From contig JBMOKY010000001.1 in NCBI GenBank assembly GCA_049325535.1, positions 299,386 to 363,385 of the forward strand: a stretch of DNA of 64,000 nucleotides, written 5' to 3'. This document shows positions 1,276 through 53,313 of the stretch, piece by piece. The notes beneath the pieces are model-generated. The model did no database searches and was not told the origin of the DNA. It worked only from the letters and a program-made list of their open reading frames with translations. A program made the position numbers and the translations under genes. Numbering within the stretch: the first letter of the stretch is position 1; the number at the start of each line of letters is the position of its first letter. This stretch comes from Patescibacteria group bacterium (lineage in GTDB: Bacteria; Patescibacteriota; Patescibacteriia; UBA10025; JAHIVO01).

Positions 1276-1279
1276 TTCT

Positions 1280-4200: not shown

Positions 4201-5404
4201 CCACGGACGGATAGCTGAACTGCCGGCGGAATATAAGCCTTTTACCCTTTCCCTGCAAAACGTAGAAATACAAATGGAAGCCGAAAAAATTTCTCATGAT
4301 TTTGACCAACTGCAATCAGAAATACTCAATGTGCTGGATGGGCGGAGCACTATCGAAACGCTGCGGGAGCGGGTCCAGGGCAGCCTGCAGACCGAGATTG
4401 ACCAGATCGAACAGTCGTTGATGAAAAAATCGGATAATCAGTTCATCCGTTCACGTCTCGAACAGCTGCGCATTATCGGTCAGGCGGTACAAGCCGCTGG
4501 CGACGCCGATTCCCTGATGGGCGCGTTGCTGGAGATCGACCTGAGTACAGGGAAAAAACTGGATATTTTTCCGGCAATCCGTGAGACGATACTCAGGCGG
4601 CTGATTGATAAAAATTATTCAGCTTTGCAGGCGGATCAATTGGCGGCGACACTACGGGGTGGGCTATCGGTTGAAGGGGTACTGCGTATGCTGACACTGC
4701 ATGATGATTTTATCAAAGATCACGTCCTCAATGTCAACCGTAAAAATGAGGAACACTACTGGTCGGATCAGACATGGGATAAGATACAGCGCGGCAGAAA
4801 GAGCAGTAAGCATATCAATCTGAGCAAGGCATTTGAGCCGCACATCGGCGTCCTCCGGGAAGCGTCGCGGAACATGACCGTCATCGAGCAGGGGAGCGCC
4901 CAGAAAATTGACGTGATTCCGGATCGGGGCCTGATCGGGGAGTTGTCCGGGTATCTGGCTGATGTGTGCTATACCGCAGAGACGAAAATGCTCGAGCGGT
5001 TTCCCAATGTTGTCCCCTTCAAATTTACTGCCCGCGACGCAGAGACCGGCGAAGCGGAATTCATCGGATCGGTATTGATTTTTGAATTATCGGATGCTGC
5101 CGGTGACCCGGTGATGCTCGTACGCGGATTTGACGTCCCCCATGAAGAAAAATACGATATTCCGAAATTTATGGAAAAGTTCATGGATCAATTGCAGTCA
5201 GTCGCCCGCCAGCGAGGCATCAAGAAGATTGTGCTACCGGGGATGACGGGCGCCATGAGTAACTACGCCATGACCAATCGCCATGTGGAGCAAGCCTACA
5301 AGCAGGACAAGCAAGCAGTGGGCCTGTCAGAGAAATTCGCGTTCAACGGGTATGATATAACTGATAATGTGTACGTGGCGCGTGATCTGAATAATTCTGC
5401 TTGA
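1280..5404 (+). CDS. very large (1375 aa) hypothetical cytoplasmic protein, N-terminal CxxC...H zinc-ribbon-like segment, otherwise helical/acidic, no TM
   Basis: Uninterrupted 4.1 kb ORF; ATG at 1280 (MTELHTTNACHYCGYPIEIGEHDW) chosen over track start 1223 which overlaps corA; no recognisable catalytic motifs. Confidence 0.7.
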   Translation: MTELHTTNACHYCGYPIEIGEHDWSLHPTDERPDQTDTAVDERGGHDENAAEDPFIALISQNRDRVAQLGAYSLELFRRKNLDAASQLLTEGLTETSDDGTISAEHRGERMQQAIQVLEAELSAIRTSIAEPLREGVEQIDDGYHKSEPLGIENLHYSLSVLMPQLQSLESRMTEVRRSLTSLTDASERYTSRVLQELGISDKNELDEKIWDLEAQTWQLRESMVGQWFHYFKRRGIEKEKKQLRALRQPGWSESFEQAKSAHRSMAYTEGDIARKLETLSHREIFSYFRSLVEEVNANYEESHRESQALPATAIDSINDDYIDRVVRPAITVAQQEHPREWISVRPEDIEQFLGVLKQSFDLTRDTQEGGDGDEPEKRERIMQAFQNFPEPLQNLRFPFTRKTGEARPNDHYDAIYEFLHDHIPRTRRTQAVKGLIDSYIQPFQDHARSLPEGSTEKYYLKNHIEYFNGYSGLERQLAGTTYEKTFIEHLDAQRWSAFVNNREMVEAFGAERIDEGTQFVEQLFRSKYLKDTGYSYSDHQRTWASLVEMGRVESAPYVVLGAYADLNARGGWKRHPGLADGTTRIIGGYISRFDSLDESGKAIPGMTELFDLIRSHPDSFAQESFYDRERGEEVKNPLFHETESALSTMIVYYLENGTDEEQLLAIRALENVSLCTDEIREWLCRHLALVHRDEYNTMPGCARRYVLEAVNRGDIAMAQALMENATGDQAASVLNESLSSGNLAGVAKIFELADRSQVEATDAAAQPSGDSGLSPELLQDLSQKIKAFIQEHPAGFVGQANRELYREVFGREPIDAFLDALPTDTDEKRNAFTHNQYDRATAFVQHMTASQDGRFSLDAEQWRYLTEYVKQFKLSKTPALYHHFVGLRKHVETGQPLTEEQLQTGIATEGQLVERFRSMRERTYGTDPILETGDFTKFDLELLSAVSGKSTHRFDTGRPSMEQIVADFQEARDHGRIAELPAEYKPFTLSLQNVEIQMEAEKISHDFDQLQSEILNVLDGRSTIETLRERVQGSLQTEIDQIEQSLMKKSDNQFIRSRLEQLRIIGQAVQAAGDADSLMGALLEIDLSTGKKLDIFPAIRETILRRLIDKNYSALQADQLAATLRGGLSVEGVLRMLTLHDDFIKDHVLNVNRKNEEHYWSDQTWDKIQRGRKSSKHINLSKAFEPHIGVLREASRNMTVIEQGSAQKIDVIPDRGLIGELSGYLADVCYTAETKMLERFPNVVPFKFTARDAETGEAEFIGSVLIFELSDAAGDPVMLVRGFDVPHEEKYDIPKFMEKFMDQLQSVARQRGIKKIVLPGMTGAMSNYAMTNRHVEQAYKQDKQAVGLSEKFAFNGYDITDNVYVARDLNNSA

Positions 5405-6336: not shown

Positions 6337-7416
6337 ATGAAAAAAATTATATTCTTTGGTGTTTCGTTACTCGTGGGTCTCGCGTTGTTTGTTGGCGTTT
6401 TTTGGCGCTTAGGTTGGGATTCCATTTTCGCGGCGATCGAAGCCTTTTCGTTCGTGAAGTGGCTGATTATCGTTTTTTTCTACGCATTAGCCCTCGGGGT
6501 GACGCTATATCGTTGGAAGCTTATTCTCAAAAGCCAGGGGTATGATATTCCCACCCTGCGTCTGCTTCCCTCACGATTGGTTGGATTTTCTGTGGATTAC
6601 TGCACCCCGTCGCCAAATGTCGGCGGAGAGGCAATCCGCGCATACGTACTGAAAAAACACGCTGGCGTACCCATGTCGCAGGGGTTGGCGTCCGTCATCT
6701 TGGACAAGGTGATGGATTTTTCCTATGCGCTGCCATTTCTTATTTTCAGTATTTTTTATGCGTTGATTTATTTTGATTTGTCGGCAAAAATCATCCTTGG
6801 CCTACTCGCGGTCAGCGGAACGTTTATTTTTTTGCTTGGTTTGTTTTATTACCGCACCCTGACCCGGCAGCATTTTTTTGGCGGCATCATCCGTTTTGTC
6901 CATTTGCACCGGTTTTCATTCATGGCCAAGGCGATGGAAAAAATTGCGAATTTTGAGCAGATTATTGTGGAGTTTTTCCGAAACCATACCCGCATTTTTT
7001 GGCAGGGCATCGGCCTGTCCACGGTCGGCGGTTTTTCCACGCTGACGGCCATGTGGCTGATTACTCGTTTTATTGGTATGGACACATCGTTTCTCGATAT
7101 CATTTTAATTTCGACCCTGACGGTTATTACCTTTCTCTTGCCGATTCCTGGTTCCATCGGTTCCACGGAAACTGGCCTGGCGCTAATTTTTACCTTGATT
7201 GGGTATCCTGCCCAGCAGGGTGTCGTGTTTAGCCTGGTATTTCGTTCGGTCGATTTAGTGAAAGCCGCTGTTGGTTTGTATTTCCTTTCCCATTTTGGTC
7301 TGAAGCTCGGGACCACCATGTTTGCGCCAAAGGGTGCCGCGCTACCGGCTAATGGCAATGGCGCGGAAGCAGCGGCTGTGGTACCATCCACGCATGAATC
7401 CGAGCGTCATGAATAA
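6337..7416 (+). CDS. UPF0104 / lysylphosphatidylglycerol-synthase-TM-like (flippase-like) membrane protein
   Basis: Multi-TM; RWKLILKSQG...PSPNVGGEAIRAYVLKK...ILDKVMD signature typical of LPG_synthase_TM family. Confidence 0.8.
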   Translation: MKKIIFFGVSLLVGLALFVGVFWRLGWDSIFAAIEAFSFVKWLIIVFFYALALGVTLYRWKLILKSQGYDIPTLRLLPSRLVGFSVDYCTPSPNVGGEAIRAYVLKKHAGVPMSQGLASVILDKVMDFSYALPFLIFSIFYALIYFDLSAKIILGLLAVSGTFIFLLGLFYYRTLTRQHFFGGIIRFVHLHRFSFMAKAMEKIANFEQIIVEFFRNHTRIFWQGIGLSTVGGFSTLTAMWLITRFIGMDTSFLDIILISTLTVITFLLPIPGSIGSTETGLALIFTLIGYPAQQGVVFSLVFRSVDLVKAAVGLYFLSHFGLKLGTTMFAPKGAALPANGNGAEAAAVVPSTHESERHE

Positions 7417-7426
7417 TCTCATCTGT

Positions 7427-7496
7427 ATGAACAATACTCGACAGCAACACGGCGGCGATGACTGCCCGTGCGGCGGCAATTGCGGCTGCGGAGAAT
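7427..7496 (+). CDS. possible 22-aa Cys-rich micro-peptide (MNNTRQQHGGDDCPCGGNCGCGE)
   Basis: Short ORF in 190-nt gap between convergent genes; followed by perfect 10-bp hairpin 7513-7537; no SD seen; speculative. Confidence 0.15.
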
Positions 7497-7547
7497 AATC
7501 AGTTTCCGTTTGTGCATCACATGAGCGTTCATGTGATGGCAGCAAAT

Positions 7548-7580
7548 TTTAAAAACTCCCGCTCGCGTATGTAACGAGCG
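7548..7580 (-). terminator. rho-independent terminator for 7607..8383 gene
   Basis: ctcccgctcg-cgtatgtaa-cgagcgggag 10-bp stem; minus-strand reading followed by TTTTTAAAATTT. Confidence 0.6.
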
Positions 7581-7606
7581 GGAGTGCTGTCCGTAATCGG
7601 TGTGAA

Positions 7607-8383
7607 CTATTTTGAGTAGGAAATGAATTCCCACCCTTCTTTCGGTTTGGTGTATGCCGAAGTCGCCGAGTCCGGCAAGCGGAAACTGGCTCCACGGACG
7701 GGGCCGTAGCCGGGCGCCAGCCATATCTCGTAATTGCGAGTGCCAATATGTCCCGGCACGTTCATGAAAGGTATCCGGATGATGAACACCTCAGGGTAGG
7801 TGGTGCCACGGACGGTGACCCCTGTCAGACGCTGACATGTGGCATTTAGCGTGTCGGCCACCGCGCGTCGGCACTGGTCGATGTCCGTTTCGGCGTGGCC
7901 GATGGTCTGCCACTGGGCGCCATGAGCGAGCGGATAGGGAGCTACTCGGCCTGGCTGCGTCAGGGGCATGTCGAGGCCGCAGTATTGCCCGCCGTGCCAG
8001 TACAGGCCGGTCTGGTCGGCGCTGAAGTACAGCGTAAAGGTATAGGCCGGATCGGTATAGTGGCGCGCGATAGGAGCGGCTGAGACAGGATAGACCGTCG
8101 CGTCGTGGTAGGAGATCGGATTTCCGATGACCGGCGCAAATGTCCAGGCATCGACCGTATTGTTCAGCAGGAACTGACGCAGGCTGTCAGCGATGTAATT
8201 GACATAGCCGGCCTGGATGGTCCGTCCGGGAACCAGTCCGAAATATTCGGCTGGAGTGGAAGGGTCGGGCGGGTTGTCGTTTCCGGTGGGACCATCACCG
8301 TTACCGCCCGAACTGCAGGCGTAGAAGATGATCCCGGTGGTCAGCAGCGTCACCATCATCAGGGTCAGGTATACGCGTTTCAT
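7607..8383 (-). CDS. secreted/lipoprotein-like hypothetical protein
   Basis: Start MKRVYLTLMMVTLLTTGIIFYACSSGG (signal peptide plus Cys); track start 8422 less likely. Confidence 0.6.
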   Translation of the reverse strand: MKRVYLTLMMVTLLTTGIIFYACSSGGNGDGPTGNDNPPDPSTPAEYFGLVPGRTIQAGYVNYIADSLRQFLLNNTVDAWTFAPVIGNPISYHDATVYPVSAAPIARHYTDPAYTFTLYFSADQTGLYWHGGQYCGLDMPLTQPGRVAPYPLAHGAQWQTIGHAETDIDQCRRAVADTLNATCQRLTGVTVRGTTYPEVFIIRIPFMNVPGHIGTRNYEIWLAPGYGPVRGASFRLPDSATSAYTKPKEGWEFISYSK

Positions 8384-15959: not shown

Positions 15960-16571
15960 TTGAGGGAAAATAATATGACATTTCAAGACGATATTAATGG
16001 AGCTATTCGAGAGATAGAGGGGCGAGGTTCGCAAGATTTATTTTTGAAAATTATTGAAGCTCGTAGTTTTTTGGCTGTTTCTTTTGAGCAGTATACTCAA
16101 AATAAAAACCAGAGCGTTCAATTATTTACCGATTCGTATTACACTTATCATTATTTTGCTTATGTAAATTTCTTTTATTCCTTGAAGGAAAGAACTGCTC
16201 AATTCATTAATAAATATTTGCGACTAGGCAATCCAATAGATGACGTAAGTTATCATAGAATTAGTCATAATGAGGAGGCACAAAAGGTTTTTAAAAAAAT
16301 ATTTGATTTCTTTGCTGATCCAGAATTTAAGTCAATTTCATCTGCAAGAAAAACGATGGTTCATCGTAGTCAAGATTATATTTCAGCAATACAGATAAAG
16401 GATTCAGCTAGCGCTCCTCAGCAAACTCCTCAGGTAAAGTTAGATAAAGATATTCTAGATAAGCCGAATGAAAAACTTAGTATTATTTTGATAAAAATAG
16501 TTGAATGTATTATTGATGAATTAAAGGAAGCTCAAAGTGAAAAGGGTGCAATTGATAAAGGTTCAGCCTGA
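15960..16571 (+). CDS. AT-rich orphan gene, possible HEPN-like (R-x4-H) protein
   Basis: GC visibly far below flanks; 203 aa helical; SARKTMVHRSQ contains R-x4-H; own hairpin terminator downstream. Confidence 0.55.
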   Translation: MRENNMTFQDDINGAIREIEGRGSQDLFLKIIEARSFLAVSFEQYTQNKNQSVQLFTDSYYTYHYFAYVNFFYSLKERTAQFINKYLRLGNPIDDVSYHRISHNEEAQKVFKKIFDFFADPEFKSISSARKTMVHRSQDYISAIQIKDSASAPQQTPQVKLDKDILDKPNEKLSIILIKIVECIIDELKEAQSEKGAIDKGSA

Positions 16572-16628
16572 ATTATGCAGAGATGAACAATTTTACGTCC
16601 TAATTCATCATAAGGGTGCGGTAGTGGG

Positions 16629-16695
16629 GGCCCGCCTCGGCTCGCGCCCGCTTCGACGAATCGAGGCGAGTCGACGCGAGGCGGGTTTTTGGTAC
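16629..16695 (+). terminator. extended GC hairpin followed by GGGTTTTTGG
   Basis: cccgcctcg...cgaggcggg 9-bp outer stem plus inner pairing, then T-run. Confidence 0.5.
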
Positions 16696-16702
16696 GAAAA
16701 AT

Positions 16703-16798
16703 GCTTGTCATCGCGAGCTCCGTCTGCGGAGCGTGGCGATCTCCGTGACTATCCAACCGAGATTGCCGCGTCGCCTACGGCTCCTCGCAATGACAAGC
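16703..16798 (+). repeat. long hairpin element: inverted GCTTGTCATCGCGAG / CTCGCAATGACAAGC arms around about 66-nt loop
   Basis: 14/15 complementary arms; arms share GATGACAAG core with repeats at 13914, 18033, 18076, 18168. Confidence 0.5.
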
Positions 16799-16817
16799 GC
16801 TGTGGTATACTAATCGC

Positions 16818-17582
16818 ATGGAAGTGTATCAGGACATAATTAAATACATTAAAACTGCAGGTCAGAGGCTGAAAGAGCGCTCGGGGCATATTGAGGATAT
16901 TGGCATTCGAAAAAGGAATTTGACGGAAGAGGACATTCGGATTGAGCGGGAACTGAAAGAAATCATTACCAAAAATGATCCAACACATCAGGTGTACGCG
17001 GAAGAGGAGAACGCCGATTTTTTTGATGCCGAGGAAGTGTGGGTGATTGACCCGATCAGTGGCACGCATTTGTTTATCCAGGGCAAACCACATTACGCTA
17101 TCGTGGTGTCGCATCTCCATAAGGGCATTGTGCAGTTTGCCGCGGTGTACGATACATCTGCTGATGAATTATTTACTGCACAGCGAGGCAGTGGGGCATT
17201 CTTAAATGGCACGAAAATAATGGTTCAGCCTGCAAGCCCTGATAGACTGCGCGTGGTATTTAATAAATCAAATAAGTGGCCAGATGAAGTATTGGTGCAG
17301 AAAGTTTTGGATGGTTTACAGACGTACGAAGTGTTTCGTTTAGAAGCCTCGCATGCGTTGGGGGATTGCTACATAGCTTGTGGGCGATATAACGGTGTTA
17401 TCGTTTTGGCAAAAGATAGTTTTCCATCGTTTGCTGGAAGTCTCATGGTTCAGGAAGCTGGTGGAGAATACACCAATCAAAAAGGTGAGTCAGATATTAA
17501 ACCAGATAATCGGATATTTGTGGGTGGAGATCACGGCACACATTTTCGACTATTGGGGATGGTGCAAGAGATGCTGAAATAA
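16818..17582 (+). CDS. inositol monophosphatase family protein
   Basis: EEENADFFDAEEVWVIDPISGT (WxIDPIDGT motif). Confidence 0.85.
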   Translation: MEVYQDIIKYIKTAGQRLKERSGHIEDIGIRKRNLTEEDIRIERELKEIITKNDPTHQVYAEEENADFFDAEEVWVIDPISGTHLFIQGKPHYAIVVSHLHKGIVQFAAVYDTSADELFTAQRGSGAFLNGTKIMVQPASPDRLRVVFNKSNKWPDEVLVQKVLDGLQTYEVFRLEASHALGDCYIACGRYNGVIVLAKDSFPSFAGSLMVQEAGGEYTNQKGESDIKPDNRIFVGGDHGTHFRLLGMVQEMLK

Positions 17583-17617
17583 ATTCAGCATGAGGGCAAT
17601 TGTGATATACTGCCAAC

Positions 17618-17953
17618 ATGTCCCACACCATTAAACTAAAAAAGGACAAGTACAAAAGCGCACGGGGAGGGTACTCGCGGTTGCTAGATATTTCCTGCCA
17701 GAAATGCCAGAAGCCGGTTTTGGTGTACCAGAAGGACGGGCCGGGGAATTTGCGGCGGTTGTATCTGGATCGAATTATGAGTCCGGAGAAGCTGGTTGGG
17801 TTACAACAGCAGAGCATCGCCAGCCTCGCGCCGCTGAAGTGCGCGGGGTGCGGATTTGTGATGGGCATTCCGTATGTCTACGAAAAAGAAAAGCGAAAGG
17901 CCTTCCGCATTTTTCAGGACGCGGTGATAAAGAGGATTAGGAAGGTGGGGTAA
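17618..17953 (+). CDS. small basic C4 zinc-ribbon protein
   Basis: CQKCQ...CAGCG; 111 aa. Confidence 0.5.
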   Translation: MSHTIKLKKDKYKSARGGYSRLLDISCQKCQKPVLVYQKDGPGNLRRLYLDRIMSPEKLVGLQQQSIASLAPLKCAGCGFVMGIPYVYEKEKRKAFRIFQDAVIKRIRKVG

Positions 17954-18167
17954 GGGGTACATACATCTGTCATGCTGAATGTAATGAAGCATCCCCTGAC
18001 CGAAGGTCAGGAAATCCTTCGCGTCCGCTCAGGATGACAAGTGCGGAGAGGTGCTGGGGATCAAAGAATAAAAAACGTTTGTCACTTCGAGCCCATTCGA
18101 CTCCGCTCAGGGCAGGCTTCGTCGAGAAGTCTTTACGACGTCGGTTGCATGTAATAGGGGTCATAAG

Positions 18168-18195
18168 GATCTCTCCGCTTCGGTCGAGATGACAG
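18168..18195 (+). repeat. 28-nt palindromic repeat copy B (GATCTCTCCGCTTCGGTCGAGATGACAG)
   Basis: Near-identical to 13914..13941; sits in 350-nt repeat-dense non-coding stretch 17954-18306. Confidence 0.6.
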
Positions 18196-18306
18196 TCGGT
18201 GGTCAGCATTTCATGGCCCCTCGCCATAACAGGCATATCGTAAGACATGCCAAATCTTGCTCAAAAGGCCTATTTGGCGTACAATGGGTAGTTCCAGGAG
18301 AGGTTA

Positions 18307-18800
18307 ATGAATTGGTACTATTTGCCGCTCATATGATAAAGAAACACGCGAAACACATAAAACCAAATGAATTGCTGGAAAAGGTGATGAACGCAGGGAC
18401 GAGTTGGCATCATCATTGCCTGTCCCCACGGTGCTATGTCAATGATACCGGCCAGGAGATCGTTTTACTGGAGGCGGGGAATGACATGTTTTACTGCGGC
18501 AGTACCGCAGAATTGCGAGAACAGCTGGAGGAGCATGCCTATCAGATTTCCAAACCGAAACGTAAAAGCGCTCAACCTATCGCGCACGAAGCTTTGAACA
18601 TCGTTCGTGGGTATCACCGCCAGGGCGTCAAATGGCATTTCCATATTGCGATGCCGCGTTGTTTTCTCAGTATGCAGGATCAGTATTTGCTCATAATCGA
18701 AAATGACGATACGTCCACCAAGCATGAGTGGACATTTGCCCAGCATCCGGTGGAGCTGGTACGGGCGATTGATGACTACTATCTCGGACGGAAACGGTAG
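18307..18800 (+). CDS. hypothetical protein with duplicated W-H-x-H...PRC motif
   Basis: SD AGGAGAGG 5 nt upstream of ATG 18307; TSWHHHCLSPRCY and VKWHFHIAMPRCF. Confidence 0.55.
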
Positions 18801-18921
18801 CACCACTCGGAGGCAGAGGGGATCCCGGATGGATACACGTGACCCTGAGCCAGAGGCCATGCTGAGTACGGTGAGCAGCATACCCAGCGAAATTGGCGTA
18901 AAAAAGTGCTATACTATACGC

Positions 18922-19506
18922 ATGGGTATATACGGAAAAGCCATGGATAATTTTTTTATGAGAAGGCCGCATACTGCTGGGTGGCTGATGTTTGGATTAA
19001 CCGTCATCGCCGTAGTCGGTGCGCGGCTGGTCGTCATCGGGTATTTTCTGACCGGGATGATCATCACGGTGATAGCAGGATGCGTAGTCCTGTCTATGAT
19101 TGGTACATTTTTTTCGAAGAAAATGGATGCGACCATGGATCTCTTTCGAAATAACCCCTGGAGCCATGCGCTACTTCTCGGTATTGGCATTTTCACCATT
19201 CTTTTTTATGAATCGATGGAGGGTATCCAGCAGTTTGTGGTCGAATGGCTCTGGTTTTTTATTCCTTTCCTTATTATTTATGTGATCATTTTTACGGGTA
19301 TGTGGCATGAGCGTCGCACAGGGATAAATAGTTATACCCGCATGATGGATCGGCTGCCCGCTCATTCCGTGCGCCATAAAATAATGCTCATGATTACTGT
19401 CGTCAGCGCCTTTGTTTTTATATTTGGATTATTAGGGCTTATCGTGATAGATAGTGTCGGTATGATTATTGGTCTGTATGAGTGTGCAGTTTGGGTAATT
19501 CGGTAG
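18922..19506 (+). CDS. hypothetical membrane protein (start uncertain, possibly leaderless)
   Basis: TATACT -10 box immediately upstream of ATG 18922; several TM helices. Confidence 0.45.
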   Translation: MGIYGKAMDNFFMRRPHTAGWLMFGLTVIAVVGARLVVIGYFLTGMIITVIAGCVVLSMIGTFFSKKMDATMDLFRNNPWSHALLLGIGIFTILFYESMEGIQQFVVEWLWFFIPFLIIYVIIFTGMWHERRTGINSYTRMMDRLPAHSVRHKIMLMITVVSAFVFIFGLLGLIVIDSVGMIIGLYECAVWVIR

Positions 19507-19624
19507 TATACTATTTTTCGGAAATAAGATGAACTGCACCCTCTGAAAAAAGCATGCCGTACAAAAAAGCAAAACCCCCGCACGCGATATTGGGCGGAGC
19601 GTTTTGCTTTGCGCTATGATGGTG

Positions 19625-20593
19625 CTATTCGGTGGGAATAAGCACAGCGTCGATGACATGGATTACGCCATTTGAACCAGTGATGTCTGTTTGGGTTACA
19701 TTTGATTCATTGACGCGCACGCCGTTTGAGGCATCAATTGAGACTGTTGAACCCTCGAGGGTTTTGGCAGATTCCAATGTGACGACATCAGCGGCCATGA
19801 CTTTTCCAGAGACGACGTGGTAGGTAAGGATTTTGGTCAGGCGGGGAACATCATTTAAGAGTTCATCGATGGTGTCCTGCCCGAGCTTGGCAAATGCTGC
19901 ATCTGTCGGAGCAAAGACCGTGAAAGGTCCAGTGCCCGAGAGGGTCTCAACCAAACCGGCTGTTTGGAGCGCGGTGACCAGCGTATTGAATGTGCCTGCA
20001 TTCTGAGCAATCTCGACTATCGTTTGCGAGTCGAGTTTAGCCAATTCAGCACTGACTGATTCTGGTACGAGTACGCTATCGATCACATGGATGATACCAT
20101 TTGATGCGCGGATGTCAGTATTGGTTACCATGGCGGTGCCAACCTTGACGCCGTCTGAAGTGTCAATCGTGAGTGACTCACCCTGGACCGTTTTCGCGCT
20201 AGTAAGATTTACTACGTCAGCTGCGGATACTGATCCGGAGACCACGTGGTAGGTGAGCACATCACTGAGTAAGTCTGGATTTGCCAAAAGTGTATCCAGG
20301 GTACCCTCAGGAAGTGTGGCAAAGGCGGCATCCGTCGGAGCAAAGACCGTGAAAGGTCCAGTGCCCGAGAGGGTGTCGACTAAACCAGCTTCTTGTACGG
20401 CAGTCACCAAAGTTGTGAATGTACCGGTCGATTGAGCGGTTTCAACGATTGTTTTGAGGGAACTATTTGAATTGTTTGTGGTTGCTGCGGTATTCGTATT
20501 TGCCGCATCGTCGGATGAGGTCAGGAGAAATACCGCGATGGCGCCAACCAACAGCACCAGTACTGCAATCATGAGAGTTGAATTTCTTTTCAT
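19625..20593 (-). CDS. secreted protein with two fasciclin (FAS1) domains
   Basis: Signal/TM then two copies of ...[10 protein letters not shown]...TYHVVSG...[11 protein letters not shown]. Confidence 0.85.
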
Positions 20594-20748
20594 AGTGAGA
20601 ATATTTTAGTGAATGAGATATTTTCGACCTTGCAATGGTTATAGTAGGGGATATTTTGAAAAGGTGCAAAACGTGCATTTTAATCAGAATTTAAACTTCC
20701 AAACAAAGTTGATTTAGATGTGGATTGCATAAGATTGAGATTATTGTA

Positions 20749-20791
20749 ATTAAAAAAATCCCCGCAGCGGAGCAATGAAAGTGCTGCGGGG
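20749..20791 (-). terminator. rho-independent terminator of small membrane-protein gene
   Basis: tccccgcagc-N-gctgcgggga stem, minus strand followed by TTTTTTT. Confidence 0.6.
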
Positions 20792-20820
20792 ACAGACGGC
20801 GACGGGGTAACCGTCAGGCT

Positions 20821-21000
20821 TCAGATGGCTGTCGGGTCAGCCGGTTTGGGAGCGGCATTTGCGCGCTCTTTACGCTCTCGTTTTATGGCCAGATAATAGG
20901 CATGGCGAATCAACTGCACTTTGAATAGCGGGCCAATCACGGCTATGAGCATCACGGCGCAGACGGCGACGATTTGCCAAAAGGACGGAGAGTGGTCCAT
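20821..21000 (-). CDS. 59-aa small membrane protein (absent from ORF track)
   Basis: MDHSPSFWQIVAVCAVMLIAVIGPLFKVQLIRHAYYLAIKRERKERANAAPKPADPTAI; GGAGG SD; own promoter and terminator. Confidence 0.5.
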   Translation of the reverse strand: MDHSPSFWQIVAVCAVMLIAVIGPLFKVQLIRHAYYLAIKRERKERANAAPKPADPTAI

Positions 21001-21036
21001 GTTCCTCCAAACAGGTGATAGGTATCAACGCATCCT

Positions 21037-21065
21037 AGTGTAGTGAAGTAGTGGCGCGCTGTCAA
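21037..21065 (-). promoter_or_regulatory. sigma70-like promoter (TTGACA-17-TACACT) for 20821..21000
   Basis: Consensus -35 and near-consensus -10 with 17-nt spacer on minus strand. Confidence 0.45.
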
Positions 21066-21067
21066 TG

Positions 21068-21104
21068 TAATAAAACGGCCCATTTCTCGAAAGAGAAACG
21101 GGCC
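21068..21104 (-). terminator. hairpin GGCCCGTTTCTC-TTTC-GAGAAATGGGCC followed by GTTTTATT (minus-strand reading)
   Basis: 12-bp stem with one mismatch; would terminate a minus-strand transcript of the 21115-21445 region. Confidence 0.5.
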
Positions 21105-21114
21105 TGGTTGAGAA

Positions 21115-21445
21115 TTAACTTCCCATAACTGGGAAGTCGTGGCAGAAAAACCATAACCGTGCGTCAGACGACACACGCCGTGTCCCGGTTACGGAGCCAG
21201 GGGATGGCACAGGACACCAGGGGAGGTACGGAACAGTGGCTTCCGAGCCACTGAAAAATTTAGATAAAGAACAGTATATGGGCTGCGGCGTTCTCCCGTG
21301 CGGAAGAAACGCAAACCTCGGCATGTGCTTAAGCCATAAGCTGGTTTACATAGGCGTACCGCCGCAGCCCGGTGAATAGGTGAAACGTGCGTAGAGTGCC
21401 GTGTGAACCATGTCATCAGGCAGTGAGCACTATAGCATATATGAG
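21115..21445 (+). ncRNA. structured non-coding RNA candidate; local similarity to bacterial RNase P RNA (type A) P10-P12 region; strand and identity unresolved
   Basis: 330 nt with no credible ORF. ACATAGGCGTACCGCCG...GGTGAATAGGTGAAACGTGCGTAGAGTGCC resembles E. coli M1 ACAGARA...AACCGCC...GGTAAGGGTGAAAGGGTGCGGTAAGAGCGCACC. Hairpin CTTCCCAtaaCTGGGAAG then AGTCGTGGC resembles P3/P4. P15-P18 and 3' P4 strand not found. Minus-strand extended -10 TGcTATAGT at about 21427-21435 and flanking minus-strand terminators favour the minus strand instead. Confidence 0.3.
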
Positions 21446-21446
21446 T

Positions 21447-21486
21447 AAAAAATAAAAACCCGCTCGAACGACATGCGCTCAAGCGG
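21447..21486 (-). terminator. rho-independent terminator of 21490..22110 gene
   Basis: 12-bp stem cccgcttgagcg/cgttcgagcggg followed by TTTTTATTTTTT on minus strand. Confidence 0.65.
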
Positions 21487-21489
21487 GTG

Positions 21490-22110
21490 CTAGGAAATGT
21501 GCTGACGGAATCGCCGGCGGAACTCGAGTGAGATCCGATAGAAAATGAGATCCGCGATGATCTTGCCGGTGACGATACCGATTTTGAATAGCGGCAGTTG
21601 GATTATCAGGATGCCTACTCCAAATAACGGAATCCCGCCGTATCCTGTCGGAATCATCACGGTGGTCATCGTATCAGCGGACCAGATGAGTACTTGGGGC
21701 ATCGACCACAGGGTGAATGGTCGAATCAGGAGATCGTCGAGAAATCCGGCCACTCCATGCTCGATGACCATAGCACGGAATGCGAGACCGATTGAGTTAA
21801 TCAGTCTCCGGTATTGTCCCGAATGAGTGGCACGGTAGAACCTCCACACTTGACGTATGAATCCCGATCCGTAAAATCCCACCATCTCGCCCATGGTACC
21901 AGCGACTGCCGCTGATGCGAAATTTTCCGTCTGCGAATACATGATGAACGCAAAGGTGTATGAGAATGCCAGTGCAAATACTTCCAGTGGCCAGTATGCT
22001 TTGAACATTTCCCGCAGTGTATTGTGTTGCTGAGGATACTGTTCCAAGCGATATTCCTTTTTTAAATGTGCCTTTTTTTGTACGGTAGTAGCGTGCGAGA
22101 TTACTGCCAT
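21490..22110 (-). CDS. hypothetical polytopic membrane protein
   Basis: 206 aa, multiple hydrophobic helices; no family recognised. Confidence 0.5.
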   Translation of the reverse strand: MAVISHATTVQKKAHLKKEYRLEQYPQQHNTLREMFKAYWPLEVFALAFSYTFAFIMYSQTENFASAAVAGTMGEMVGFYGSGFIRQVWRFYRATHSGQYRRLINSIGLAFRAMVIEHGVAGFLDDLLIRPFTLWSMPQVLIWSADTMTTVMIPTGYGGIPLFGVGILIIQLPLFKIGIVTGKIIADLIFYRISLEFRRRFRQHIS

Positions 22111-22307
22111 ACTCTTTGGCGTTTCACCGCATCGACGTATGATATCTCATATTGGGCATTGAGTCAATGGTACATATTCTGTCCGATCTCGCTGGATCAT
22201 TATTTGGGAAACCGTATGTGCCGTAATGCCGATACGCTATTTTCATAAAAAAAAGAAGGCCCACAATCCTATTGCAGGCCCGTACGAGAGATGATGTCAT
22301 CCTATGT

Positions 22308-22551
22308 TTAGTCCGCGTTTTTCAGCGCGGAACCGATCTGCACGACGCTGATGGAAATGCCCCACAGCGCCAGCAGCATGATGGCCGCGTGTTTGCCGTC
22401 CACCGTACTCAGGTGGCTCAGCGAATCGGCGGTCTCTGCCGCATGGTGGAAAATGTTTGACAACGTTCCCTGGTACGGACCGGAAATGGTCCAGCAGAAG
22501 AAGGGAATGAGGCAAACGATGAGGATAAAGAGCCACACCACTGGTTTCATA
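22308..22551 (-). CDS. small two-TM membrane protein
   Basis: MKPVVWLFILIVCLIPFF...; GGAGG SD before ATG 22551. Confidence 0.45.
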
Positions 22552-22702
22552 CGGAAACCTCCTTTCGGGTTTTTGTGGTGAACGATGTATACTAGCATCT
22601 GTCCATCTTTTTGTCAATACCTTTCACCTGATCGACGGATGAAACAAACAGGCGGAGGTGTGGTACCGCCGCCTGGGTTTATTGGATTTGGCATCCGTGT
22701 GT

Positions 22703-23503
22703 CTATCGGACGAGCTGGGTAGCCGTGTCGTGCAGCAGGCCATTCGTGGCGATGATGCGTTTGACCGAGCGATCGCTCGGGTCGAGCTGGTTTCCCGCCA
22801 GATCGGTGACGCGTCCGCCCGCTTCCTCCAGGATGAGAGAGGCCGCTGCCACGTCGATGAACCGTGTGTCGCAGGTCATCAGGTCGAAATGCCCCCGTGC
22901 CACATGGACCATGTCCAGTGCCGTAGAGGAGATATAGCGCATCTTCAGGGCATGTCGGGCGAATTCCTGAAAAGTGGCCATGCCCCGATGCATCAGCTCG
23001 GGCTGGTCGGCACGTGACCACCAGGAGGCGCTCACTGCCGCTTGCTCCAGCTGTGTGGTTTTCGAAACGGCAAGCGGGAGCTGGTGTGCCGCATCTGAAT
23101 TGAGGTAGGCGCCATGTCCCCGTGCGGCTGTTATCATCTCCCGGGTGATCGGATTCATGATGACGCCGACCGTGGTTTCACCAGCGATGACCAGCGCCAC
23201 CGAGATGCAGAACCAGGGGATGGAAAGCGTGAAATTGGTGGTGCCGTCGATGGGGTCGATGAACCATTGTTCCGCGCCATCACCGATGGTGTCGGTTTCC
23301 TCCTCCCCGAAAATTCCGTGGCTGGGGAAGCGCCGGCGGATGATATCCACGATCCGCCGCTCTGCCTGACGGTCCGATTGGGTGACGAAGTCACCCGCCA
23401 CACTTTTGGTCTCGACCAGCATCTGTCGACCAAATGCCGGCCTGACGATGTCCGCGGCGCCGAGCACCGCTTCTACCGCACAATCAAGGTACTCTTTGAA
23501 CAT
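22703..23503 (-). CDS. inositol monophosphatase family protein (second paralog)
   Basis: FGEEETD...EQWFIDPIDGTTNF; start MFKEYLD at 23503. Confidence 0.85.
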   Translation of the reverse strand: MFKEYLDCAVEAVLGAADIVRPAFGRQMLVETKSVAGDFVTQSDRQAERRIVDIIRRRFPSHGIFGEEETDTIGDGAEQWFIDPIDGTTNFTLSIPWFCISVALVIAGETTVGVIMNPITREMITAARGHGAYLNSDAAHQLPLAVSKTTQLEQAAVSASWWSRADQPELMHRGMATFQEFARHALKMRYISSTALDMVHVARGHFDLMTCDTRFIDVAAASLILEEAGGRVTDLAGNQLDPSDRSVKRIIATNGLLHDTATQLVR

Positions 23504-23651
23504 GATGGTTCCTTTCTGTTTTTGGTGAATGCTGGATAGTACCATGCGCTGAGCCTGGGCGTCAACTGTCGACCCAGCATAAAAAAAATCCGCCGGGGAG
23601 GGTAGTATACCCCGGCGGTATGGAGGAACCAGTGGTCGTACATGACGACCG

Positions 23652-23882
23652 TCACTGATGGCACGTCGCTCGACAATGGAGCGCGTGGTGGAGGTGGTAG
23701 TGCAGGTGCGGGATGCGGCTCCGCCGGCGGAATTCGACATACTGCCGACGGTTGTCGGTGCAGACGCGTACCAGGGTAACCCCATCATAGGGAATGCGAA
23801 TCAGTCGTCCGCCGGCGCAGGTTATCACGCACTGCTTGCGGCGGAAAACGACGCGGTTGATGCGGACACGGCGTGGTCGCAT
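23652..23882 (-). CDS. small Arg-rich basic protein (76 aa)
   Basis: AAGGAGAT SD 7 nt upstream; MRPRRVRINRVVFRRKQCVITCAGGRLIRIPYDGVTLVRV...; no family assigned. Confidence 0.5.
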   Translation of the reverse strand: MRPRRVRINRVVFRRKQCVITCAGGRLIRIPYDGVTLVRVCTDNRRQYVEFRRRSRIPHLHYHLHHALHCRATCHQ

Positions 23883-24029
23883 AGTATCTCCTTCTGGGAA
23901 GGTGCTGGTGAGTTATGTCCTACCTGTAGCCTAGTCCGATGGCGCATGATTTGTCAATTCGGGAGGACCTGGTATGATGGAGGAAGTAAGCAGAAGTGCG
24001 CACTCATAATTAAAGTAAGAAGCAATACT

Positions 24030-24344
24030 ATGAATGGTCAACCGCAAACACAGCCGAATCAGCAACAGATAAACATAAAAATAGACGACGTCACCATGAA
24101 GGGCGCGTATTCGAATGCGATGGGCGTGTCCCATTCAAAAGAAGAATTCGTCCTGGATTTCATGAATATCTACGCACACCAACGATCGGGCATCGTGTCA
24201 GCGCGCGTCATCACCAGCCCCGGGCACATGAAGCGGATTTACAAAGCCCTGGAGGAAAACATCAAGAAATACGAAGATCGCTTTGGAAAAATTGAGGAAG
24301 CGGCCGCGCCGGGAGCCGGTGACATCGGCTTTCGAACGGTGTAA
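24030..24344 (+). CDS. DUF3467 family protein
   Basis: INIKIDDVTMKGAYSNAMGVSHSKEEFVLDFMNI...ARVITSPGHMKRIYKALEENIKKYEDRFG matches DUF3467 pattern; upstream part of track ORF 23658.. rejected. Confidence 0.65.
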   Translation: MNGQPQTQPNQQQINIKIDDVTMKGAYSNAMGVSHSKEEFVLDFMNIYAHQRSGIVSARVITSPGHMKRIYKALEENIKKYEDRFGKIEEAAAPGAGDIGFRTV

Positions 24345-24405
24345 AAAAAAGACCCGAGTCGTGCGAAGTGCGAAACTCGGGTTGTTGGTTTGAGCAATTG
24401 TTTCT

Positions 24406-25089
24406 TTAGGTGGCATTGAGCTGCTCGACGGTTTTGTCGAAAAGCCAGTTGACGGCGGTGCTGAAGAGTTGCGTGCGCTCTTCGCGCTGCGCTGCGGTCA
24501 AGCCGGGACGTTCCACGATGTTGGCGCGGTAGTGCGGCCGTTCGCCCGGCTTTTTGCCGAACATCAGGATGTCCATGCGCAGGCCGGCTATCTGGATGAG
24601 CAGCGCTAGATAGACTTTGCGCCATTCGCGCGTCATTTCGAGACGCCGGTGGTGGAGCATCGACCAGATTAGTGCGGGTTCAGCCAGGTGGGCATTCTTC
24701 TCGTGGTAGATGAACTGGAAGAGGGTGTATGCCACCCCGCGGCCTACCGGATGGTAGGCGCTTTCGAGCCCGTCGATGATCCGGACGTCGGTTGCTTTCA
24801 GATACTGATTGAGGAGGGCGGCGTGCCGCATGCGGATGTGGCTCATATCGAGTGAATAGTACGGCCTGGGGTCGTACTGCTCGGCGAACGCCATGATCTG
24901 TTCCAGGTCGTTGTCGGTGAGCGTCTTTCCGGTGAGGTACACCTCGAGCGCTGGCGGCGGCGCGGGCGGCGCGGGCGGATTGACGCGGTAAGCGAACCGG
25001 ATGGCCTGCTCCACGAATTTCGGCATATCCACGATGCCAAAAGCGCCCTGGCAGCAGTCCGTCAGCGAGATTCTGTTCTTCGTATTCAC
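24406..25089 (-). CDS. hypothetical protein (227 aa), operon partner of 25120..25485
   Basis: Pro-rich linker PPAPPAPPP; no known motif. Confidence 0.55.
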   Translation of the reverse strand: MNTKNRISLTDCCQGAFGIVDMPKFVEQAIRFAYRVNPPAPPAPPPALEVYLTGKTLTDNDLEQIMAFAEQYDPRPYYSLDMSHIRMRHAALLNQYLKATDVRIIDGLESAYHPVGRGVAYTLFQFIYHEKNAHLAEPALIWSMLHHRRLEMTREWRKVYLALLIQIAGLRMDILMFGKKPGERPHYRANIVERPGLTAAQREERTQLFSTAVNWLFDKTVEQLNAT

Positions 25090-25119
25090 GATATTCTCCT
25101 TGTACGGGTAGTGGCGGTT

Positions 25120-25485
25120 TTAGAGCCGATCCGTGAAATGGGTTTTGAAGAGCGCGGGTCCAAATGCCACAGCGGATTCGTTTCGATTCGGAAATACATT
25201 GATCCGATCCGTGTCGATGCCGGTGGCCCAGTACGATGTTCCGGTGCGGAATACAATCCTGCCGCCGGAGGCATAGTCCCTGGTGCAGCGCACCTGAGTG
25301 GCTTCCTGAAAATGGGCGACCATCTCTTCGTCGCTGAATGCCGTGACCCCGCCGCCGTCCTTATCCAGGATAGCGCCGGTCTGGCTGGGCAGGCGACGAT
25401 GGTAGATGTGCCCGATGGTAAAATCACAGCCATCTCGGGTGATCGGTGAGATACACCGGAAATAGCTGGTTTTGGTAATGTTCAT
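25120..25485 (-). CDS. hypothetical protein (121 aa)
   Basis: GGAGGTG SD before ATG 25485 (MNITKTSYFRC...); 30-nt gap to downstream gene. Confidence 0.5.
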   Translation of the reverse strand: MNITKTSYFRCISPITRDGCDFTIGHIYHRRLPSQTGAILDKDGGGVTAFSDEEMVAHFQEATQVRCTRDYASGGRIVFRTGTSYWATGIDTDRINVFPNRNESAVAFGPALFKTHFTDRL

Positions 25486-25574
25486 AGCACCTCCGTGCGA
25501 TATTCTATGTTGATTTTTGTTTTGCCTAAATCTAGTGTACACTACTAGTAGAATATGTATTTGTCAATGCCCTC

Positions 25575-26639
25575 ATGCGCGTGGAGCAAACAAAAAAAGA
25601 AATTCCGAAAGCCGAAGATTTTAAGGCTCCGCAACCAGTGCACAAGCTGCTAGTGCTGTTTGGATTGATTATCGGCGCCACGGCCCTTTTTTGGCTGGCT
25701 TGGCGCTATGCCCTGACCACCATCGATTTTTCCCTCGGCGCCAAGAATATTTCCACGGTAATAATAACACTGCTCGCTTTCACGCTAATGTGCGCGCTGG
25801 TGGCCCTGACCGGCGTACTCGTGACGCAGCGGCGGTATTTGTTGCCGGCATGCGCTATCGCGTCAGCTACCGGCGTGGTATTTTTTGGAGTGTCGTGGTG
25901 GAGCGTGGCGGCGGTTGTCATCATGGCGCTCGGCTGGATGTACTGGTTACGGGAAATCCGTAATGATATCAAAACGCGCATCAAACTTATCCCGCAGCGC
26001 ACGACCAGCGCCGGATTGACCGGTGTAGTCGTCTGTATGCTGCTGGCAATTTCCCTGATGTATTATGGGTTTTTGGTGGGACAGCGCGATTTCCAATCAA
26101 ATGTCACTGACGGCTTGGTCGATACCGGTGTCGGGGTGGTGAATATTGTACTGGGCAAGGTGTACGGTGAGCAGTATAATCCGGACATGACCCTGGATGC
26201 TTTTCTCGGATCGGTTGCACGGCTGGAATCCCTGAAGCAGCAGGGGATGGATGAGGTGAACGCGCTTGCTCCGGCCGAGGACATCGAGGCGCTGAACGAC
26301 GTCATTGCCCAGGGAATATCCCAGGCAGAGCAGGAGATCATCAGTCAGGCGCGCCAGGAATTCCTCGATACGTTCAAAATCGAGGCCGGTGGTGACGAGC
26401 ATATGGAATCGGTAGTGAAGAAGATTGCTACTCAAAATATCACTACGTACGTCGATCCATATCGGCGGTTTATTCCGGCTTTGTTGGCCGTCAGTTTATT
26501 CTTTCTGCTTAATGTTTTTTCCATCCTTTACCGCGAATTGATTAAATCATGCGCTGTAATCCTTTTTTATATATTGTCCTGGACACATTTTATAAAGAAA
26601 ACCGAAGTGCAGACGACGGTGGAAAAGGTAACCCTCTGA
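25575..26639 (+). CDS. hypothetical membrane protein with helical C-terminal domain
   Basis: 354 aa; 4-5 TM then soluble region. Confidence 0.55.
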
Positions 26640-26649
26640 ACTGCACGAC

Positions 26650-26678
26650 TTGACAGGACGCTTGCGTGCGCGTAGACT
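26650..26678 (+). promoter_or_regulatory. sigma70-like promoter TTGACA-17-TAGACT for dnaJ
   Basis: Consensus -35, 17-nt spacer, -10 TAGACT, about 20 nt before ATG 26698. Confidence 0.5.
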
Positions 26679-26697
26679 GTTATATTTAGAGTATCCT

Positions 26698-27801
26698 ATG
26701 GCAAAAGATTTATACGAAATTTTAGGCGTCAGCAAAACAGCATCGGCGGATGAGATCAAGAAAGCCTACCGCAAACTGGCTCACCAGCACCATCCGGATA
26801 AACAGGGTGGCAACGAAGAAAAATTCAAGGAGATCAACGGTGCGTATCAGGTCCTGAGCGATCCAGAGCGCCGGCAGCGCTATGATCAATTCGGCAGCCA
26901 ATATGAGCAGGCAGCCGGTGCCCGCGGACAAGGGTTCTCCTGGGAAGATTTCGCTCGTGCGGCGGGTGGTGGTTTTGGTCAGGGTCAGCAGACCAGCTAT
27001 GACTTCGGGGATTTCGGTGACATTTTCGGAGATATTTTCGGGTTTGGTCGCAGGAGTGGAGGTCGCGCTGCACGCAGTCGCGGTCAGGACATCCAGGCTG
27101 ACCTGCGGATTACTATTCGGGAAGCGGCATTCGGCGTGGAGAAACAGGTGAGTTTATACAAATATGTCGAGTGCGGTCACTGCGCCGGTAATGGCGCTGA
27201 GCCCGGAAGCAGCATCGAGACCTGTCGTACTTGTGGGGGTCGCGGGCAAGTAGAGCAAATCCAGCAGACGATCCTCGGCCAGTTCCGTACCGCGGCGGTG
27301 TGTCCGGACTGCCACGGCGAGGGCAAGAAAGCGAGTACGAAATGTTCCGTCTGTGGGGGAACCGGTCGAAAACGCGCCAGTGAGGAAATTCGTATCAAGA
27401 TCCCGGCAGGTATCAGCGACGGGGAAGCAATCCGCGTTTCCGGTAAGGGTGAGGCGGGAATACGGGGCATCAGCGCTGGGGATCTGTATATAACCGTTCA
27501 TGTCGATTCGGATCCGGCATTTACCCGTGAAGGAGATGATATTCTTTCTACGGTCGAGATTAGTTTCAGTCAGGCCGCGCTCGGCACGAAGGCTCCGGTA
27601 GAGACCCTGGACGGTGAAGTTATGCTCAAAATTCCCGCTGGTACCCAATCCGGCAAAGTGTTCAAATTAGCCGGTAAAGGCGTGACGCATCTGCGATCGC
27701 GCGGTCGCGGCGACCATCTGGTGACTGTTGTCGTCCTGACCCCGACGAAATTGTCACGTAAACAAAAGCAGCTGCTCGAAGAGCTCGCCGAAGAAGAGTA
27801 G
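26698..27801 (+). CDS. dnaJ: molecular chaperone DnaJ
   Basis: J-domain with HPD, G/F region, four CxxCxGxG repeats, C-terminal domains. Confidence 0.93.
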
Positions 27802-39213: not shown

Positions 39214-39469
39214 TGAATCCTCCTTATTACAGTATTTTGTTTTCGGTGTTATGGGAGCACTTGTTGCCAAATAATATGACAATGAGCACAAAGAACTAAA
39301 CATCCTATCATGGCTGTCAAGAAATGTCAATACCTAGGGGGTGGTAATCATAGCCATTTTCTAACTATGTGTATAACTTTTCTAGTAAATCGGAATGATT
39401 TGATTTTTCAAATCTTGATTATTTACAGAAAAAATGATATAATATGTACATTCATACGTAACGGCCAGT

Positions 39470-53193: not shown

Positions 53194-53220
53194 TGATCGA
53201 GTATCGTTATTTGTCAGTAC

Positions 53221-53255
53221 ACACCCTGAGTGAGGAGGCTCGGGGTGTTTTTATA
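53221..53255 (+). terminator. rho-independent terminator of purB
   Basis: acaccctgag-N-ctcggggtgt then TTTTTAT. Confidence 0.6.
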
Positions 53256-53290
53256 TAAAAAAACGGCTCGTGCTGGTGATGCACGAGCCG
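53254..53290 (-). terminator. rho-independent terminator of 53314..53547
   Basis: cggctcgtgc-loop-gcacgagccg followed by TTTTTTT on minus strand. Confidence 0.55.
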
Positions 53291-53313
53291 AAGAATCGAT
53301 ACGCAGAGGGTTT

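Follow-up and report, generated by a model that had tools for sequence, protein, structure and literature searches.

A candidate minus-strand small RNA gene, distinct from RNase P RNA, in a lineage-specific insert of a Patescibacteria genome

A 64,000-nucleotide (nt) stretch of a Patescibacteria contig (JBMOKY010000001.1, assembly GCA_049325535.1; hereafter the window) contains, in the spacer between two co-oriented minus-strand genes, a structured locus that lies downstream of a gene for a 185/206-amino-acid (aa) membrane protein and upstream of a gene for a 59-aa protein. We propose, at a probability of roughly 45%, that positions 21070-21424 of the minus strand constitute a free-standing gene for a structured RNA of ~355 nt, a regulator acting by base pairing in trans that is not RNase P RNA and is confined to one species-level lineage. 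The observation itself is real and its strand is settled as minus, whereas the RNase P interpretation, raised in a preliminary description of this DNA, is rejected. What is left is an orphan, lineage-restricted candidate small RNA (sRNA) gene with good transcription signals and a strong predicted structure.

The unit to be explained is 21070-21424 because terminators, an extended -10 box and a separate downstream promoter delimit it (Table 1). The minus-strand box TGcTATAGT, to which the preliminary description had drawn attention, is indeed present and is one of just two matches to TGNTATART in the window, both intergenic and both aimed at a downstream unit; the second, at 39435-39443 on the plus strand, stands directly upstream of a gene. 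The transcript is predicted to start at ~21421-21424, ~7 nt past the box. Same-species contigs from public sequencing runs comprise L001-L003, which encode the exact 59-aa protein, and L086-L090, which encode an 88%-identical variant (P0123); seven of them reach the RNA, L090 being too short to extend to the locus. Strain L002 differs from the window at 21439, in the promoter spacer, and at 21424, near the start site, and nowhere else in the promoter or RNA. The two terminators said to bracket the locus are likewise in place (21488..21458 and 21104..21077), and since T-runs come after both stems on the minus strand, both work on that strand only. A consensus scan found no promoter-like or terminator-like site on the plus strand of 21060-21490, all sites lying on the minus strand. 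Two details needed correction: the terminator described as having a GNRA loop exists, but its minus-strand loop is UUUC, GAAA being the plus-strand complement; and the locus, put at ~330 nt, is structured and terminator-bracketed as claimed, but the unit spans ~21070-21424, or ~355 nt, the hairpin at 21458-21488 belonging to the upstream gene. That hairpin is identical in every aligned same-species contig and marks the upstream boundary of the RNA from outside. The 59-aa gene has its own promoter, with hexamers that survive 9% divergence, and the upstream gene its own strong terminator; the RNA is therefore a separate unit. It displays the generic features of an sRNA gene: it lies in intergenic DNA, is free of credible open reading frames (ORFs) and has a promoter and a Rho-independent terminator of its own, both on the same strand.

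That no credible ORF exists here, as the preliminary description had it, holds up well: the overlapping ORFs of 97, 69, 74, 47 and 31 aa have no Pfam match at E<=1, and gene callers placed no gene at the locus in the six same-species contigs that span it (L001-L003, L086-L088). Reading the sequence by eye, we found no combination of a Shine-Dalgarno (SD) element and a start codon in the locus. Comparison of 273 proteins and 24 window proteins with the spacer by tblastn gave noise only, so the spacer is not a recognizable gene remnant. At 53.7% GC, the RNA body is richer than most short spacers in the window, which range from 30 to 46%.

The description of the locus as structured also proved right. 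On the minus strand, 21070-21424 folds with a minimum free energy (MFE) of -144.3 kcal/mol (z -6.4), a value matched by 0 of 100 shuffles, versus -137.5 kcal/mol (z -4.1) on the plus strand. By composition-corrected MFE the locus ranks ~12th of 2,548 segments of 350 nt taken from both strands (top 0.5%); stronger folding occurs at 53501-54000 (a tRNA-Pro spacer), 16451-16900 (a spacer with long palindromes) and 7401-7850 (a spacer that holds a terminator, plus the end of the gene next to it). Every structured domain folds better on the minus strand than on the plus strand, as in the three-way junction (-46.3 kcal/mol, z -3.7, versus -40.1, z -2.3) and the 3' hairpin block (-29.6 kcal/mol, z -4.45, versus -22.2, z -3.6), and six G-U pairs in helices with pair probabilities of at least 0.9 turn into A-C mismatches on the plus strand. 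All the tests run side with one of the two readings offered previously, a minus-strand RNA of unknown class that extends from an extended -10 promoter to a terminator.

We posit that transcription would begin ~7 nt after TGcTATAGT, just past the terminator of the preceding membrane-protein gene, and would end at the 12-base-pair (bp) intrinsic terminator; the earlier terminator-like hairpin at 21158..21177, a possible internal or early terminator, could yield an additional isoform of ~275 nt. The predicted RNA would consist of an unstructured 5' arm of ~55 nt, a three-way junction, a 26-nt A/U linker and four perfect hairpins, leaving a UCCCC hairpin loop and a ACCUCCCC segment exposed for pairing. 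The helix that closes the junction is a perfect inverted repeat (21280-21290 / 21360-21370) with a pair probability of 0.99. Two copies of TCCCCTGG (21197-21204 and 21217-21224) lie in the C-rich domain, and an unpaired C-rich motif in a loop or single strand, as in UCCC-motif sRNAs, is present: the UCCCC loop at 21200-21204 has an unpaired probability of 0.99, and ACCUCCCCU one of 0.61. ACCUCCCCUGG is anti-SD-like and has CCUCC in common with the anti-SD sequence; the core of the ACCUCCCC segment is identical to that sequence. In Staphylococcus, the UCCC loops of RNAIII and the Rsa RNAs pair with ribosome-binding sites and block translation initiation. By analogy, we infer a trans-acting, anti-SD-like mode of action, in which the C-rich elements, possibly together with the 5' arm, would base-pair in trans with mRNAs at their G-rich ribosome-binding sites and block translation initiation there. 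Because the small genomes of the Patescibacteria, or candidate phyla radiation (CPR), leave little idle DNA, a self-contained structured unit of 355 nt is a reasonable candidate regulator in this uncultivable organism.

Table 1. Features of the locus and its flanks, listed in the direction of minus-strand transcription
Feature	Position	Strand	Details
185/206-aa membrane-protein gene	21490-22047/22110	-	upstream neighbor
Intrinsic terminator of the 185/206-aa gene	21458..21488	-	13-bp stem, 8 GC pairs, then TTTTTATTTTT
Extended -10 element TGcTATAGT (TGCTATAGT)	21429..21437	-	matches the pattern TGNTATART
Predicted primary transcript	21070..21424	-	~355 nt, 53.7% GC, no credible ORF
5' arm, ~55 nt, weakly structured, C/A/U-rich, G-poor	21371..21424	-	alone -7.1 kcal/mol, z -0.1; C20 U14 A12 G9
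Three-way-junction domain	21280..21370	-	11-bp closing helix (GGGCUGCGGCG/CGCCGCAGCCC) around two hairpins
A/U-rich single-stranded linker AUAUACUGUUCUUUAUCUAAAUUUUU, 26 nt	21254..21279	-	mean unpaired probability 0.94
Perfect 8-bp hairpin, CGGA loop	21234..21253	-	pair probability 0.96
C-rich domain, two UCCCCUGG copies	21178..21231	-	one copy in the UCCCC loop, one inside ACCUCCCCUGG
8-bp hairpin, then U-rich GUUAUGGUUUUUCU	21158..21177	-	terminator-like; pair probability 0.95
9-bp hairpin, GUUA loop	21117..21138	-	pair probability 0.97; on the opposite strand, the "P3" of the preliminary description
Intrinsic terminator of the RNA	21077..21104	-	12-bp stem, UUUC loop, then GUUUUAUU / GTTTTATT; pair probability 0.99
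Sigma-70-type promoter of the 59-aa gene, TTGACA-17-TACACT	21037..21065	-	outside the RNA, between its terminator and the SD element
59-aa single-transmembrane protein gene	20821..21000	-	NCBI ACOYUK_01655, hypothetical protein, on a 1.148-Mb contig

The RNase P reading deserved a real test because the host belongs to the CPR and RNase P RNAs of this group have been overlooked: in 10 of 35 circular CPR genomes they were missed at Rfam thresholds, some being without P12 (Lui et al. 2021, PMC8172020), and they were recovered with RF00010 at lowered thresholds, with many conserved features kept (PMC8172020). The strings on which the reading was built all lie where they had been placed (ACATAGGCGTACCGCCG at 21349, GGTGAATAGGTGAAACGTGCGTAGAGTGCC at 21371 and CTTCCCATAACTGGGAAGTCGTGGC at 21120), and in type A RNase P RNA similar strings occur in the J11/12 and J12/13-P13 region. 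We ran the covariance models of Rfam release 15 at the gathering score on the window and at E<=10 on 1,001 nt and 401 nt, on both strands. At the gathering score they returned only two tRNAs in the whole window, and at E<=10 they returned no RNase P, tmRNA, 6S, signal recognition particle (SRP), riboswitch, intron or large non-coding RNA match in either segment; RF00010 and RF00011 specifically had no match at E<=10 on either strand of the 401 nt. None of the chance matches was accepted: within the locus these were to Histone3 (11.8 bits) and PK-repBA (14.1 bits), and those at 20752-20839 were look-alikes of terminators. The Rfam check on both strands, which the preliminary description had put forward, thus refutes membership of a known family, not the existence of the RNA. 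Of the P4 consensus strings, CR-I (GGAAAGUCCGGGC), the 5' strand, matches at 21131 on the plus strand with three mismatches, one of 17 such matches in the window versus 18.4 expected by chance, and CR-V (ACAGAAnnCGGCUUA), the 3' strand, has no match within three mismatches in the locus. Smith-Waterman alignment to Escherichia coli M1 RNA scores 20, versus 19.4 +/- 2.3 for shuffles, and this score is equaled or exceeded by 217 of 636 window tiles. The RNase P-like motifs therefore stand at chance level. Moreover, the plus strand is without transcription signals and folds worse in every domain, 200 nt separate the "P3" from the "S-domain" motifs, and the sequence beyond them is too short to accommodate P15 together with the 3' strands of P4, P2 and P1. 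With Rfam, P4 strands, M1 alignment and transcription signals all negative, the degenerate RNase P RNA that had been suggested finds no support, and a highly degenerate plus-strand version without P12 and P15-P18 is extremely unlikely, for all the known tendency of CPR RNase P RNAs to escape Rfam or to do without P12.

Other familiar RNAs were rejected as well. tmRNA, 6S RNA and SRP RNA have no Rfam match, ARAGORN reports no tRNA or tmRNA at the locus, and the predicted fold is a series of hairpins, not the rod shape of 6S RNA. An intron-bearing tRNA was considered because a tRNA-Lys gene fills the slot of the RNA in L092, a contig from a relative; there is no Intron_gpI match at E<=10, ARAGORN is negative, and by eye neither strand shows acceptor, D-arm or T-arm features at the ends or a convincing group I core (P, Q, R, S).

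Several observations weigh against a trans-acting regulator. Although the RNA body (21072-21423) has zero substitutions in the seven other same-species contigs, the block 21055-26999 diverges by ~0.47% between strain groups, so only ~1.7 changes would be expected in the RNA and its invariance is not evidence of selection. Searches by nhmmer and blastn found no homolog in 1.35 Mb of sequence (80 Patescibacteria DnaK loci and others), and a 259-position covariance model (R1) found none in this 1.35 Mb or in contigs L092 and L093; phages, plasmids and viral contigs gave no match, and the sole pattern match in metagenomes (contig L091) had arisen by chance, within coding DNA rich in GC. There is also no paralog within the window. 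Because no homolog was found outside the species, covariation lends the structure no support, and the RNA appears to be restricted to one species-level lineage. The proposal meets further difficulties: the -35 region is weak and A/T-rich; none of the 57 translation-initiation regions in the window, which covers 64 kb of a ~1.15-Mb genome, is an outstanding target; and a CCAGGGGA site occurs on no sense mRNA strand in the window. Perfect, bulge-free hairpins are typical of terminator remnants too, the locus sits in a recombination-prone, lineage-specific insert of the hrcA-grpE-dnaK-dnaJ cluster in which a non-functional spacer could persist, and orphan sRNA candidates are common in every genome.

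The setting of the locus bears on the last points. Our DnaK scan covered 80 Patescibacteria loci, with the closest DnaK, from the metagenome-assembled genome POMEDNA-B28, 89% identical, and the ancestral order around dnaK in these loci is hrcA-grpE-dnaK-...-DUF3467-x-dnaJ. In the window, a lineage-specific insert of ~7.7 kb (15960-23503), missing from these loci, splits the hrcA-grpE-hsp20-dnaK ... DUF3467-x-dnaJ cluster seen in the relatives L007 and L008. Besides the RNA locus it holds genes for a Cthe_2314-like HEPN protein, two inositol-monophosphatase (IMPase) paralogs, a two-domain fasciclin protein and several family-less proteins; one of its genes (18189-18800) has a homolog in L008. 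No close relative of the flanking IMPase turned up in 185,579 species genomes, and its nearest relatives (57% identity in L004, 41% in L005) sit in unrelated contexts with no RNA homolog; L004 also carries a heliorhodopsin gene at 1937-2716. Among strains, divergence is mosaic and climbs to 9% exactly at 21055, in the spacer of the 59-aa gene's promoter. Across the 59-aa gene L086 and L087 are 9% divergent and L001 and L002 stay close to the window; beyond it divergence is 4-8% in all four (18219-21055 compared). The fasciclin gene (19625-20593) is found in the window and in L003, as far as that contig reaches, and is absent from L001, L002, L086 and L087. These patterns suggest that, immediately downstream of the RNA, there is a recombination breakpoint and a gene that is present in some strains and absent from others.

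The main rival, which we consider rather unlikely, follows from this setting: 21070-21424 would be a non-functional structured spacer made of old terminators and rearrangement scars in a variable insert, its promoter-like box being fortuitous or the source of a spurious transcript. The want of homologs beyond the species, the absence of the insert from L007 and L008, the recombination boundary at 21055 and the fasciclin-gene polymorphism adjoining the locus are all consistent with such a scar, as are the terminator-like character of two hairpins and the existence of spacers (16572-16817 and 53194-53920) that fold as strongly or more so. It is harder to reconcile with a promoter and terminator that match in orientation and are sensibly spaced, with an extended -10 pattern found only twice in 64 kb, each time ahead of a downstream unit, with a three-way junction and a CGGA-loop 8-bp hairpin that are not terminator-like, and with a GC content above that of typical spacers in DNA that holds no detectable protein remnant.

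The position of the RNA immediately upstream of the 59-aa gene, in the same orientation and with a terminator at its end, invites another view, in which it would be a cis-acting leader or attenuator that senses a ligand or condition and controls read-through of the terminator at 21104..21077; the three-way junction is broadly like aptamer architectures. This we judge distinctly improbable. The TTGACA-17-TACACT promoter of the 59-aa gene intervenes between the terminator and the SD element, and in the divergent strains L086-L089, in which three bases of its spacer differ (21055, 21054 and 21052), both hexamers are kept. Known riboswitches and cis leaders were rejected, with no Rfam cis-regulatory match and no riboswitch family emerging even at E<=10. 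Moreover, between the junction and the terminator lie ~200 nt with four more hairpins, inspection by eye turned up no convincing antiterminator pairing, and the recombination boundary parts the RNA from the gene.

The 59-aa gene could alternatively be tied to the RNA as a toxin to its type I antitoxin. The gene is real: it has a GGAGG SD element 6 nt ahead of its ATG, and its 21 nucleotide differences from variant P0123 give ~7 amino-acid changes, with ~2 synonymous changes per non-synonymous one, which fits a protein under purifying selection. Its product, with one hydrophobic helix and a basic tail, has a size typical of type I toxins and is encoded next to an untranslated RNA at a strain-variable locus. 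We nevertheless regard this pairing as very unlikely. Complementarity of the RNA to the three neighboring mRNAs is at chance level, so no role as a type I antitoxin is favored; the longest pairing with the 59-aa mRNA, 7 nt by Watson-Crick pairs and 11 nt with G-U pairs, is at or below that of shuffles, and the initiation region of the gene is no outlier among the 57 examined. Known type I toxin-antitoxin pairs are antisense or divergent, which makes the tandem arrangement atypical, and the candidate toxin diverges by 9% while the RNA is invariant. A 12-nt repeat common to the 59-aa and 206-aa genes does not reflect homology. Neither PADLOC nor NCBIfam gave a match among the neighboring proteins that bears on the locus; the one sub-threshold match of PADLOC (E 0.006) concerns a distant 354-aa protein.

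Co-oriented genes for small membrane proteins on both sides of the RNA also recall OLE RNA and oapA, and the RNA could serve as a scaffold for a ribonucleoprotein with these proteins. The upstream protein belongs to a real, uncharacterized family: HMMER finds 173 representatives at E<=1e-3, mostly ~120-250 aa long and unannotated, with no Pfam or NCBIfam model, and with R17, Y18, E22, G57, Y59, E96, G98, D104, R109, P110, K162, D166, F169 and Y170 invariant or nearly so. Its AlphaFold model is all-helical, with a predicted local distance difference test score (pLDDT) of 90, and has no significant match among solved structures in the PDB, the best being the membrane domain of dolichyl-phosphate mannose synthase (TM-score 0.40, E 2.7). 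Yet no Rfam match to OLE or another large RNA was obtained, and the closest family members, in L092 (52% identity) and L093 (45%), each lie beside an ordinary tRNA gene instead of an RNA homolog; in L092 a tRNA-Lys gene occupies exactly the slot of the RNA. Two further family members are on contigs too short for context. Since R1 finds nothing in L092 or L093, there is no conserved RNA-protein linkage, and we see little chance that the scaffold idea is correct. The tRNA-Lys region of L092 (5681-5960) and the tRNA-Glu region of L093 (4408-4790) each contain a partial duplicate of the tRNA 3' end and a terminator ~150-250 nt on, like an attachment-site scar, and L092 has a tyrosine integrase and a tRNA-Arg gene just upstream. 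Small elements that use tRNA genes as integration sites may carry genes of this family or have them as neighbors.

A bolder proposal, and a very unlikely one, is that the locus encodes the first known representative of a class of large structured RNAs confined to a poorly sampled Patescibacteria lineage, with the three-way junction acting as a ligand- or protein-binding module, for example with the flanking uncharacterized membrane proteins, or with the whole RNA standing in, in radically reduced form, for a housekeeping ribozyme; only the want of sequenced sister genomes would have kept it from view.

Elsewhere in the window, a 23-nt direct repeat (53742-53764 / 53917-53939; 96% identical) copies the 3' end of a minus-strand tRNA-Pro gene (53921-53996) 175 nt away and resembles the scar that an integrative element leaves at its attachment site. 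The surrounding spacer, 53194-53920 (727 nt), is the strongest-folding region of the window and contains at least one small minus-strand ORF preceded by an SD element, with a start at ~53560. Another of the strongest folding signals comes from the spacer 16572-16817 (57% GC), with a long terminator hairpin at ~16625-16690 and an imperfect palindrome of ~100 nt (GCTTGTCATCGCGAGC...CTCGCAATGACAAGC) at ~16700-16800. A plus-strand ORF of 1,393 aa (1223-5404) has no Pfam or NCBIfam match and is followed on its 3' side by a gene for a C39-like peptidase and then by one for a lysyl-phosphatidylglycerol-synthase-like membrane protein. Weak matches of an 847-aa protein (40028-42571, plus strand) to VirD4/TraD-type coupling proteins hint at genes related to conjugation or type IV secretion in this small genome.

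To our knowledge, the non-coding RNAs of the CPR are almost unexplored. If transcribed, the RNA proposed here would join the small number of candidate trans-acting RNAs reported from the phylum and offer a concrete object for metatranscriptome mining; in practical terms, RNase P need no longer be considered at this locus, and it is now clear on which strand the candidate lies and where it would start and end. Set beside known systems, it shares with type A RNase P RNA (RF00010, including the diverged CPR forms; PMC8172020) a length of ~350 nt, a few strings like those of J11/12 and J12/13, and a phylum in which RNase P RNA is often hard to detect, but it differs in having no covariance-model match, no P4 strands above chance, no P1/P2 closure and no P15, in carrying the motifs on the strand without promoter and terminator, and in having the better fold and the G-U pairs on the opposite strand. 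Group I intron-containing tRNA genes of Patescibacteria, which escape standard tRNA finders (Nakagawa et al. 2026, PMC13011429), would fit its length as tRNA plus intron, and the corresponding slot in L092 is a tRNA-Lys gene, but the locus is without tRNA arms and without ARAGORN and Intron_gpI matches. OLE RNA (RF01071) is likewise a large structured RNA beside co-oriented genes for small membrane proteins, but the candidate is about half its size, has no Rfam match and no cross-species conservation, and the homologs of its neighbor lie beside tRNA genes. As at type I toxin-antitoxin loci, a single-transmembrane protein of <60 aa is encoded beside a non-coding RNA, in DNA that varies among strains, but here the two are in tandem and their complementarity is not above chance. 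With RNAIII and the Rsa sRNAs the candidate RNA has no sequence or structural homology; it comes from a different phylum, contains no embedded peptide gene and has only one clearly looped C-rich motif. What it would have in common with them is a general architecture: several hundred nucleotides arranged in multiple hairpins, its own promoter and intrinsic terminator, a UCCCC loop and a CCUCC segment.

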